Shown: positions 30,842 to 31,795 of the stretch, one piece after another
Layout of the letters: every line of letters begins with the position of its first letter
How positions within the stretch are numbered: position 1 is the stretch's first letter
Assembly (NCBI GenBank): GCA_016176335.1
Contig: JACOXI010000004.1
Coordinates: 82,303-146,302 of the forward strand
Length of the DNA stretch: 64,000 nucleotides
Source of the DNA: Candidatus Daviesbacteria bacterium
GTDB lineage: Bacteria; Patescibacteriota; Microgenomatia; Daviesbacterales; UBA10151
Reading direction: 5' to 3'
Made by a program: the position numbers and the translations under genes
Notes under the pieces: generated by a model
What the model was told of the DNA's origin: nothing
What the model saw: only the letters and a program-made list of their open reading frames with translations
The model's database searches: none

Positions 30842-31795
30842 ATGTCAAGTTCAGTCAAGCCGGACCTGTCAATTATTATTCTCAATTACAATGTCAAGGA
30901 TCTTTTATTAAACTGCTTAGATTCTATTTTTAAAAACAAAACTAAAGAGGATAACTGGCAAATTATTGTGGTGGATAATGCATCTAAGGATGGCTCGGTG
31001 GAGGCTGTAAAGGAAAAATATGGTAGCCCTTCGACGAAGTTTATCCCGAGCGAAGTCGAGGGACTCCGGGTAGATTTGATTGAGAATCAATCAAATCTAG
31101 GATTTGCTCAAGGGAATAATGCAGCAATTCCAAAAGCAAAAGCGCCTGTGATTTTGTTTTTAAATCCGGATACAGTAGTGGTAAATGGAGCTATCAGTAA
31201 GTCACTTAAGTTTCTTATGAGCAATCCGGATATGGGAGCCCTGACCTGCCGTGTTGAGTTACCAGATGGAAGGCTGGATTATTCCTGTCACCGGGGTTTT
31301 CCTACTCCATGGAATGCTTTTTGCTATTTTAGTGGTCTTTCTAAAATTTTCCCCCACTCCTCTTTTTTTGCAAGATACACTGCATCTTATCTTGATACCA
31401 ATAAAACCCATGAGATAGATTGTTTAACAGGAGCATTTTTGATGGTCAGAACAATTGCCGGGGAGCAGATAAACTGGTGGGACAAAGATTATTTTTGGAA
31501 CGGAGAGGATATTGAATTCTGCTTTTCTTTAAAAGAGAAGGGCTGGAAAATTTATTTCTATCCTGAAGTAAAAATCATTCACTATAAAGGTTCATCTTCC
31601 GGTTTATGGAATACCGCAGCAAGTAGGGTTTCCCACCAAGTGCGTATGACTTCGGCTACTCATGCAGTCTCTGCCATGAGAATTTTTTATATAAAGCACT
31701 ACTATAAAAATTACCCTCCGCTGCTACGGGATCTCATACTTTTGGGAATCAAATCATTGGAACATTACAGAAAATTTAAGATTATGATGGGCTAA
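30842..31795 (+). CDS. family-2 glycosyltransferase
   Basis: LSIIILNYNVKDLLLNCLDSI...VVDNASKDGS...DxD region. Contains the 18-nt element at 31045-31062. Confidence 0.8.
   Translation: MSSSVKPDLSIIILNYNVKDLLLNCLDSIFKNKTKEDNWQIIVVDNASKDGSVEAVKEKYGSPSTKFIPSEVEGLRVDLIENQSNLGFAQGNNAAIPKAKAPVILFLNPDTVVVNGAISKSLKFLMSNPDMGALTCRVELPDGRLDYSCHRGFPTPWNAFCYFSGLSKIFPHSSFFARYTASYLDTNKTHEIDCLTGAFLMVRTIAGEQINWWDKDYFWNGEDIEFCFSLKEKGWKIYFYPEVKIIHYKGSSSGLWNTAASRVSHQVRMTSATHAVSAMRIFYIKHYYKNYPPLLRDLILLGIKSLEHYRKFKIMMG

Follow-up and report, generated by a model that had tools for sequence, protein, structure and literature searches.

Two tag-less hairpin units, probably of the Ssn/CGTC-REP type, lie in frame in the murT and glycosyltransferase genes of a Candidatus Daviesbacteria bacterium

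Short hairpin-forming repeats with an upstream tag have been described in bacteria under several names. Di Nocera et al. (2013) defined the CGTC-tagged repetitive extragenic palindromes (REPs), a class that includes dRS3 and the Rickettsia elements RPE-4 and RPE-6, which were equated with the CGTC-4 and CGTC-1 families, respectively (PMC3733652). These repeats are composed of an unpaired CGTC (or TGTC/CCTC) tag, a stem of 8-9 bp starting with AT, a loop of 4-5 nt and a short tail. They occur mostly as head-to-head dimers, and in-frame copies within genes, including those of tRNA synthetases, were recorded; a dedicated transposase was not known at that time (PMC3733652). In the account of Ogata et al. 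(2002), as relayed in PMC3733652, another Rickettsia element, RPE-1, measures ~100-150 bp and is confined to that genus. More recently, the Neisseria NTS, CGTCATTCCCGCGMAVGCGGGAATCYRG (the dRS3 core), was generalized to "Ssn-related motifs" (SRMs) that are distributed across phyla (Chenal et al., 2025; PMC11893778). NTS copies bracket ssnA, which encodes a 94-aa single-domain GIY-YIG nuclease. SsnA binds the hairpin and cuts single-stranded DNA (ssDNA) upstream of it, the upstream tag being essential for activity. NTS modulates transformation in Neisseria and is seldom intragenic there, at 2% of copies (PMC11893778). Here we describe two copies of an 18-nt unit, CCCGAGCGAAGTCGAGGG, in 64,000 nt of DNA from a Candidatus Daviesbacteria bacterium, a host from the candidate phyla radiation (CPR) (assembly GCA_016176335.1, contig JACOXI010000004.1, positions 82,303 to 146,302, forward strand; this whole stretch is hereafter called the window). 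We think it likely that both copies are orphan, tag-less units of a pan-bacterial hairpin class of the Ssn/CGTC-REP type, sitting in frame in hypervariable loops of a family-2 glycosyltransferase (GT2) and of MurT.

The two units and their host genes are as follows.

30842..31795, + strand: GT2 gene, 317 aa, Pfam PF00535/PF13641
31045..31062, + strand: 18-nt core hairpin unit in the GT2 gene, stem TCCC/GGGA, loop GAGCGAAGTCGA, coding for (I)PSEVEG
48875..50167, - strand: murT, lipid II isoglutaminyl synthase subunit, 430 aa, host gene of the second copy
49114..49131, - strand: 18-nt core hairpin unit in murT, stem GCCCC/GGGGC, loop GAGCGAAGTCGA, coding for PRAKSRG in another frame

An earlier sequence-only reading of the window had pointed out an exact 18-mer pair in the same coding orientation and in different frames, and it was right. 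CCCGAGCGAAGTCGAGGG occurs exactly twice in the window, at 31045-31062 (+) and 49114-49131 (-), on the coding strand of both genes, where it is translated within ...FIPSEVEGLR... in GT2 and within ...NSPRAKSRGPS... in MurT. No further match is present in the window, even with up to three mismatches, and none appeared in 100 dinucleotide-preserving shuffles of it. The similarity between the two sites extends beyond the exact 18-mer to 39 nt at 79%; directly 5′ of the unit stand AGTTTAT in the GT2 copy and TTCGC in the murT copy. Average GC content in the window is ~40%, and the two sites account for the 2 of its 42 GC-rich islands that belong to the 18-mer family. Neither site has terminal inverted repeats beyond the hairpin, or a target-site or other direct duplication. 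Both host proteins recur exactly in independent assemblies, MurT in a 219-kb NCBI contig and two Logan runs and GT2 in five contigs, which excludes an assembly artefact. Chance similarity, a shared peptide motif or a chimera could draw on the short length of the match; with no match in the shuffles, frames that differ and so leave no common peptide, and identical proteins in independent assemblies, we regard it as extremely improbable.

The 18-mer is found far beyond this genome. When one genome per species was scanned, it turned up in at least 120 genome stretches from many phyla, against ~17 expected by chance under uniform composition. Among the matches listed, the hosts include Acidobacteriota, Verrucomicrobiota, Sphingomonadaceae, Planctomycetota, Omnitrophota, Ignavibacteria, Clostridia and Patescibacteria. 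The unit also occurs in 40 IMG/VR viral contigs, several of which have three or four co-oriented copies. The flanks are non-random: among the matches listed, 38 of 136 copies are preceded by the 5′ pentamer GTCAT and 15 of 136 by TTCGT, the typical 5′ tags of the family being (C)GTCAT or CGTTCGT, and the 3′ trimer is mainly ATC, ACC or ACG. Inverted pairs are frequent among the listed copies, for instance GTCATCCCGAGCGAAGTCGAGGGATCCCG...CGGGATCCCTCGACTTCGCTCGGGATGAC.

Covariation indicates what is being conserved. In 86% of 171 distinct copies, the bases immediately outside the 18-mer form a Watson-Crick pair, as opposed to 50% in shuffles (maximum 58%). This pair is T-A in 96 copies and C-G in 44, and the window holds one of each: the GT2 copy closes with T...A, the commonest covarying pair of the family, and the murT copy with C...G, the second commonest. 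At Daviesbacteria loci the loop GAGCGAAGTCGA is combined with the covarying stems CCC/GGG, CCCT/AGGG, TCCT/AGGA and TGGT/ACCA. Because the closing pairs covary and the loop recurs with different complementary stems, the conserved object is a short GC stem (4-5 bp) that closes a constant 12-nt loop, GAGCGAAGTCGA. This loop may hold sheared or tandem G-A pairs and a GAA turn. The 18-mer represents one of the unit types in a pan-bacterial class of hairpin repeats that has already been described as CGTC-tagged REPs or Ssn-related motifs. Rfam returned only tRNAs, both in nine 18-mer loci (E ≤ 1) and in the whole window (gathering thresholds), and leaves the unit uncovered. A full-text literature search for the 18-mer DNA strings found no paper containing them, and a search for the peptide strings gave only noise.

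Exact 18-mers were also seen in two leucyl-tRNA-synthetase (LeuRS)-like open reading frames (ORFs); the loci compared are given L numbers here. In L023 (Patescibacteria) the copy lies at ~3184-3201, within ...SEGPERSRGKETV..., and is a further in-frame intragenic copy. In L040 (uncultured bacterium, 44% GC) it lies at 610-627, within ...PVPSEVEGM..., also in frame.

A small gene accompanies some of the units. ORFs within 400 nt of the genome matches were clustered, and the small-gene family was assigned by its match to Pfam PF01541. One recurrent family emerged near the 18-mer among the listed loci, consisting of ~91-117 aa proteins that match GIY-YIG. In five loci (L021, L037, L097, L098 and L115) the ORF (~95 aa) is bracketed by inverted 18-mer units. 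The same clustering, over at least 120 genome loci, yielded no association of the 18-mer with Y1 genes. In a Daviesbacteria relative, L247, a 95-aa GIY-YIG gene with flanking GTCAT hairpins lies immediately downstream of the orthologous GT2 gene and separates two GT2 genes that directly adjoin one another in the window (31795/31799).

1441-1957 of L247: GIY-YIG insertion, with GTCATTCTGG...CCAGAATC and ATTCTGG...CCAGAATGAC hairpins as its flanks

A presumed autonomous form therefore exists in the Daviesbacteria lineage and at the GT2 locus, outside the window. In its complete form, the element has a ~95-aa single-domain GIY-YIG (Ssn-type) gene between inverted tagged copies; most copies are orphan units.

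Other Daviesbacteria GIY-YIG genes (L140, L170 and L190, with hairpin units upstream of the ORFs) sit among tRNA-Leu/Val genes. Nearby tRNA-like fragments (in the same three loci, in L154 at 8173-8230 and in L145 at ~2094) carry hairpin units with a GCGAAGTCGA core, which interrupt a tRNA-Leu-like 5′ part or replace the variable arm in a partial tRNA copy.

Both window copies are insertions relative to orthologues, and both sites are insertion hotspots. In related genomes other hairpin families or heptamer arrays occupy these two codon positions. The features of the MurT site are listed below.

49097..49147, - strand: hypervariable linker of MurT, 17 codons, LLRNSPRAKSRGPSLYV, between WIWDxxFE and SGxRAxDLAxRLKYAGF, an insertion hotspot
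49107..49118, no strand assigned: palindrome GAGGGGCCCCTC, formed by base pairing of the unit's 3′ end with CCCCTC-ACTT, a truncated inverted copy that lies downstream on the coding strand
49132..49159, - strand: perfect 12-bp inverted repeat with a 4-nt loop; arm 49148-49159 consists of the conserved A-N-F-E codons and arm 49132-49143 belongs to the linker

For MurT, 120 Daviesbacteria orthologues (60-76% identity) were aligned and the DNA of 70-odd related loci was compared. The linker in the window is five residues longer than that of the solved S. pneumoniae MurT, 6fqb. Four states were found across the loci: a heptamer array, other tagged hairpins, a hairpin within an array, and a unit of the window's type. 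The commonest state is a tandem array of ~4 copies of a 7-nt unit, translated as a decapeptide with a 7-aa period (e.g., LKVQSAKLKV or LRTTNYELRT); the heptamer varies by lineage (ACTACGA, AACTATC, AACGATT, AGTTACA and others). Some loci have tagged hairpins that belong to other families and run forward on the coding strand, for example L127 (GTCATTGCGAGGAGCGAAGCGACGTGGCAATC) and L153, where the hairpin is the canonical NTS (GTCATTCCCGCGCAAGCGGGAATCC). In L154, L156, L159 and L141 a GC-rich hairpin stands in the middle of a heptamer array. The window's unit is shared by a MurT group with the peptide ...LQNSSRAKSRD..., of which L161 has the exact 18-mer after tCGT. Diverged copies are present in L129, L148 and L158, L126 has a deletion, and in L186 a second unit is nested in the loop of the first. 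The relatives L161, L158 and L186 have tCGTCCCGAG. With the linker masked, parsimony on a neighbour-joining tree of the 120 MurT orthologues counted 59 changes; this figure is not used, the tree being star-like and 44 sequences having been classed as "other".

Paired positions at this site change together. The stem GCCCC/GGGGC of the window is GTCCC/GGGAC in L186, a compensatory change. The 12-bp palindrome has TTC/CGA (Arg) in the window and TTT/CAA (Gln) in L161 and L158, with perfect hairpins of 12-13 bp in all three. This inverted repeat at 49132-49159, also noted in the sequence-only reading, is exact, and its region folds far better than shuffles (z = -5.0), the palindrome GAGGGGCCCCTC being the second hairpin of the fold. 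One half of this palindrome is made up of the conserved host codons A-N-F-E, so that the 12-bp repeat is not simply part of the element. Structures of this kind could also have originated de novo in a mutable linker, through intrastrand template switching or the correction of quasi-palindromes; no mobile element would then be involved, and the resemblance between the two sites would be a by-product. The linker arm 49132-49143 is indeed an inverted, covarying copy of the adjacent A-N-F-E codons, a truncated inverted copy follows the unit, and nested structures occur. However, such a process cannot yield an 18-mer identical to a consensus that >150 copies from unrelated phyla have in common, together with tagged flanks and associated GIY-YIG genes, and no template for the entire 18-mer is present locally at either site. 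We consider it an unlikely origin for the units, although template switching may have shaped their flanks.

At the GT2 site, alignment of 120 orthologues delimits a composite insert.

31023..31070, + strand: composite 48-nt insert in GT2 (16 codons, GSPSTKFIPSEVEGLR), from orthologue comparison
31027-31035 (CCCTTCGAC) and 31065-31070 (TCCGGG): outer arms of a reverse-oriented unit in the insert, enclosing GAAG-TTTAT-18mer-AC

The empty site is preserved in L206 (...KKEYP-GVEVI..., i.e., EYPGVEVI), and L204 contains only a reverse-oriented unit of the same family, CCCTTCGACTTCGCTCAGGG, with the peptide SPSTSLR. The window and its closest orthologue, L203, have the arrangement CCCTTCGAC-[GAAG TTTAT 18-mer AC]-TC(C/A)GGG, the nested form in L203 having one mismatch. 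The GT2 insert reads as a forward unit nested inside an older reverse unit. Other occupants of the position are reverse-oriented tagged hairpins in L247 and L248 (...CTCCTCGCAATGAC and GAGATTCTTCGCTACGCTCAGAATGAC), the canonical NTS reversed in L249 (GGATTCCCGCTTCCGCGGGAATGAC) and a TTCCCAC-N7-GTGGGAA hairpin in L250. The insertions are nested in, or abut, pre-existing hairpins. The proposal that a small REP-like palindromic element had been inserted in frame into coding sequence is borne out by the existence of orthologues without it, and the alignments of MurT and GT2 orthologues favor insertion over coincidental convergence.

The inserts are conserved as nucleic acid, synonymous positions included, rather than as peptide. 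Comparison of the window with L203 gives a third-codon identity of 15/16 for the GT2 insert and of 0.49 for the remaining 301 codons (binomial p = 2e-4); amino-acid identity is 0.81 in the insert and 0.75 in the rest. Over the 17 codons of the MurT linker, third-position identity with L161, L186, L158 and L148 is 0.76-0.88, versus 0.40-0.49 elsewhere in the gene; with L129 it is only 0.59, versus 0.47 in the rest. Amino-acid identity of MurT is lower in the linker (0.35-0.59) than in the rest (0.58-0.69). As judged from these alignments, the conservation pattern does not support a functional peptide. Nucleotide-level conservation together with covariation implies either selection on a DNA or RNA hairpin or repeated re-templating by gene conversion, re-insertion or template switching.

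Selection of the first kind would be expected if the unit were a domesticated cis-acting hairpin, acting in the mRNA to slow translation between domains, or as a site controlling recombination or uptake like the Neisseria NTS, which modulates transformation (PMC11893778). Conservation of synonymous positions far above the gene background, covarying stems and the strong fold of the MurT region are compatible with such a role. Many orthologues, however, lack the element or have unrelated sequence at the site, and the GT2 region does not fold above shuffles (z = 0.38), so that we allow this explanation only a small chance. Folding, which had been suggested as a check on the elements, sets the murT region apart from shuffles and does not do so for the GT2 region or the isolated unit.

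Both copies are old, being common to orthologues of 63-76% amino-acid identity, so that nothing indicates a recent move by transposition from one of the two genes to the other. This bears on the possibility of a lineage-specific family of REPs or MITEs (miniature transposable elements with inverted repeats), recently transposed into both genes of this genome. Identical, GC-rich copies in a genome of 40% GC invite such an explanation, and the sequence-only reading had spoken of a small palindromic mobile element family of the MITE/REP type. Yet the 18-mer occurs in many phyla as well as in viral contigs, the window has two copies, none of them intergenic, both insertions are shared with those same orthologues, and there are no terminal inverted repeats or target-site duplications. 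Recent transposition is distinctly improbable. What stands of the earlier proposal is the REP-like in-frame palindrome; the MITE character and a family specific to this genome do not.

The orientation of the tags adds a further regularity. Tagged elements are in forward orientation relative to the coding strand of MurT and in reverse orientation relative to that of GT2, and murT and the GT2 gene lie on opposite strands both in the window and in JACPDA010000004.1. All tags therefore lie on one absolute DNA strand. This hints at replication-strand specificity, with coding constraints as an alternative cause.

If the two copies are orphan units of the Ssn/CGTC-REP-type class, the element would persist as a DNA or RNA hairpin that is merely tolerated by the proteins, as are the Rickettsia RPEs. 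It probably spread through ssDNA, targeting hairpin-prone sites with the aid of a hairpin-specific enzyme. An Ssn-type GIY-YIG nuclease would be the most likely candidate for this partner, a tentative choice; a Y1/RAYT transposase is less likely, and an improbable one. Selection for being recognized by such a hairpin-specific ssDNA enzyme, or re-templating or gene conversion from other copies, may hold the sequence near the family consensus. In a gene-dense genome, copies would survive only where they land in a permissive loop and in a frame free of stops, as with RPEs.

Several observations weigh against this reading. The 64-kb window contains only two copies and no GIY-YIG gene. No mobility event was seen, since orthologues of 63-76% identity have both copies. 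The (C)GTCAT tag, which Ssn cleavage in Neisseria requires, is missing from the window copies, which have either lost it or never carried it. The isolated 18-mer and the tagged 26-mer do not fold above shuffles (ViennaRNA, standard parameters), and recombination between lineages could likewise explain why synonymous positions are so highly conserved. In addition, the published SRM pattern, HGTCWYN(0-2)YYVSBRHN(0-5)WNVSBRGN(0-2)RNCYNB, which detected NTS in a control, has no match in the window and misses both copies as well as the tagged family consensus.

The window also encodes a transposase module with hairpins of its own.

21319-22014, + strand: Y1_Tnp / IS200-like transposase ORF, 231 aa (Pfam, E = 2.6e-9)
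21289-21319 (CGTGTTCCTACTTGACATGTGGGAAGGTAGA) and 21985-22015 (TGCGTTCCCACATCCGATGTGGGAAGGTGAT): hairpins flanking the Y1_Tnp ORF, with a third copy in frame inside the ORF at 21771-21801

The stretch 21289-22015 has the appearance of a RAYT/REPtron-like module whose tag is GGTAG, and its hairpin family is the one that fills the GT2 hotspot in L250. Separately, L204, an orthologous region from another Daviesbacteria genome, has at 1217-1786 a 189-aa ORF with a weak Y1_Tnp match, located between ATP synthase beta and a carbonic-anhydrase-like gene; the syntenic window ORFs (28936-29508 and 29516-30022) have no Pfam match.

It is possible, though we are inclined to doubt it, that particular codons of essential or conserved Daviesbacteria genes (the MurT linker, the GT2 loop and possibly LeuRS) are recurrent landing sites for unrelated ssDNA-hairpin families and for lineage-specific heptamer arrays. 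Ssn-type tagged hairpins, RAYT-type hairpins and the 18-mer unit would all land there, with tags on one strand and retention at the nucleotide level. If this is true, there would be active, strand-specific, hairpin-targeted insertion or conversion inside the coding sequences of ultra-small genomes, and the intragenic heptamer arrays would be an undescribed repeat class.

The heptamer arrays are a more unusual by-product of this analysis than the 18-mer. A count over 617 kb of Daviesbacteria DNA gave 98 arrays with a period of 7 and four or more copies; for periods 5, 6 and 8-11 the count was 0-3, and shuffles had none. Long open frames contain 92% of the 98 arrays and 72% of random positions. 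The arrays in the window (~4-5 copies, with a unit that varies by array) are located as follows.

537-565, 1185-1211, 1730-1789, 6367-6389, 6705-6733, 10955-10984 and 18783-18804: heptamer arrays
24012-24064, 27144-27237, 27593-27655, 32700-32730, 39504-39538, 48316-48386 and 48801-48830: heptamer arrays, continued

Arrays are present in L123-L196 as well, and most MurT orthologues have one in the linker that holds the 18-mer here. A literature search for heptamer repeats in CPR bacteria found nothing specific. The arrays were considered as companions of GC-rich hairpins and rejected as such: 12% have a GC-rich flank, compared with 10% of random positions. Given this lack of enrichment, arrays and hairpins occur together in the MurT linker because they have a permissive or target site in common, and not because they form one composite element. 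In some low-GC viral contigs heptamer arrays and GC-rich hairpins stand side by side.

Several arrays in the window are found in other recognizable genes. In ATP synthase beta (ORF 27502-28908), a 10-aa insertion relative to the solved structure 2qe7_D coincides with two heptamer arrays (27593-27655). The upstream ORF (26586-27500), ATP synthase gamma-like by synteny, has [ATATCGN x4]-AAGCAAAGCTTGC-[AACGATN x3] at 27144-27237, two inverted-complementary arrays in frame. Another example is the gatD ORF (48009-48797, -), where inverted arrays at 48309-48386, TATCGTN x4 and CGATNAN x3 with a 15-nt spacer, form a long hairpin inside the coding sequence and are translated as LIDYRKGKKQRYTINDTRY. 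A 32-nt inverted repeat pair, 27183-27214 and 41783-41814 (94% complementary), has AAGCAAAGCTTGC between GATCTAA heptamers, and a similar AAGCAAAGCTTGC core is present in the MurT linker of L141.

A GAAGTCG core had been proposed to tie the 18-mer to further palindromes of the window, and this link did not hold up. The heptamer occurs 7 times against 3.07 expected, a count that 3 of 100 shuffles reach, and 3 of the 7 occurrences belong to the single tandem array at 1185-1211. The copies in the pilin leaders, taken for family members, are parts of 4x7-nt tandem arrays, a separate phenomenon. The element at 51503-51590, taken for a relative, is a different structured hairpin outside the 18-mer family. 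This region, 51490-51605 (-), consists of GGACC...GGTCC with two inner hairpins, has an RNA fold of -38.3 kcal/mol (z = -3.5) and stands directly upstream of the likely ATG of a glucosaminidase-like gene.

A literature search found no description of these repeats, or of palindromic in-frame insertions, in CPR bacteria, and no follow-up on Ssn. The units described here would extend the Ssn/SRM (CGTC-REP, RPE-like) hairpin repeats to CPR bacteria and add a unit type missed by the published search pattern. They would show repeats of this class in compact CPR genomes inside conserved genes, at recurrent loop positions and with conservation at the nucleotide rather than the protein level. Such sites offer a natural system for how these hairpins spread and why particular sites are hit repeatedly. 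They are also a source of spurious "protein motifs" in CPR proteomes, including SEVEG, SRAKSRD, PRND and RFRGND.

Among the known systems, SRM/NTS repeats share with the 18-mer family an oriented tag, (C)GTCAT, that precedes a GC-rich hairpin in most of the family's copies, inverted copies around a ~95-aa GIY-YIG gene (for the 18-mer, at loci outside the window), and spread across phyla. The window copies themselves have a hairpin-forming inverted-repeat core (TCCC/GGGA and GCCCC/GGGGC) with covarying stems, and the canonical NTS appears at both hotspots in relatives (L153 for MurT and L249 for GT2). They differ from SRM/NTS in their 12-nt GAGCGAAGTCGA interior, in having no ssn gene in the window, in that both are intragenic, and in their CPR host. 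CGTC-tagged REPs are likewise short tagged palindromes that insert in frame into genes, to which the 18-mers in LeuRS-like ORFs (L023 and L040) correspond; however, the 18-mer unit has a stem of 4-5 bp and a conserved loop of 12 nt, and the window copies lack CGTC. The unit is related to the CGTC-tagged REPs but lies outside the four described families. Rickettsia RPEs resemble the window copies in being palindromic repeats inserted in frame at permissive protein positions, absent from some orthologues and translated as a short extra peptide, whereas the unit described here measures 18-48 nt, is pan-bacterial and shares one codon position with several repeat families. REP/REPIN-RAYT systems also consist of hairpin repeats, processed as ssDNA by an HUH Y1 transposase, and the window has a Y1_Tnp gene with GGTAG-tagged hairpins; the 18-mer copies, however, lack the GTAG tag and differ in sequence from the hairpins that flank this transposase. 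The 18-mer element is thus not a new kind of repeat, but a new unit type of a known class in a new host group.

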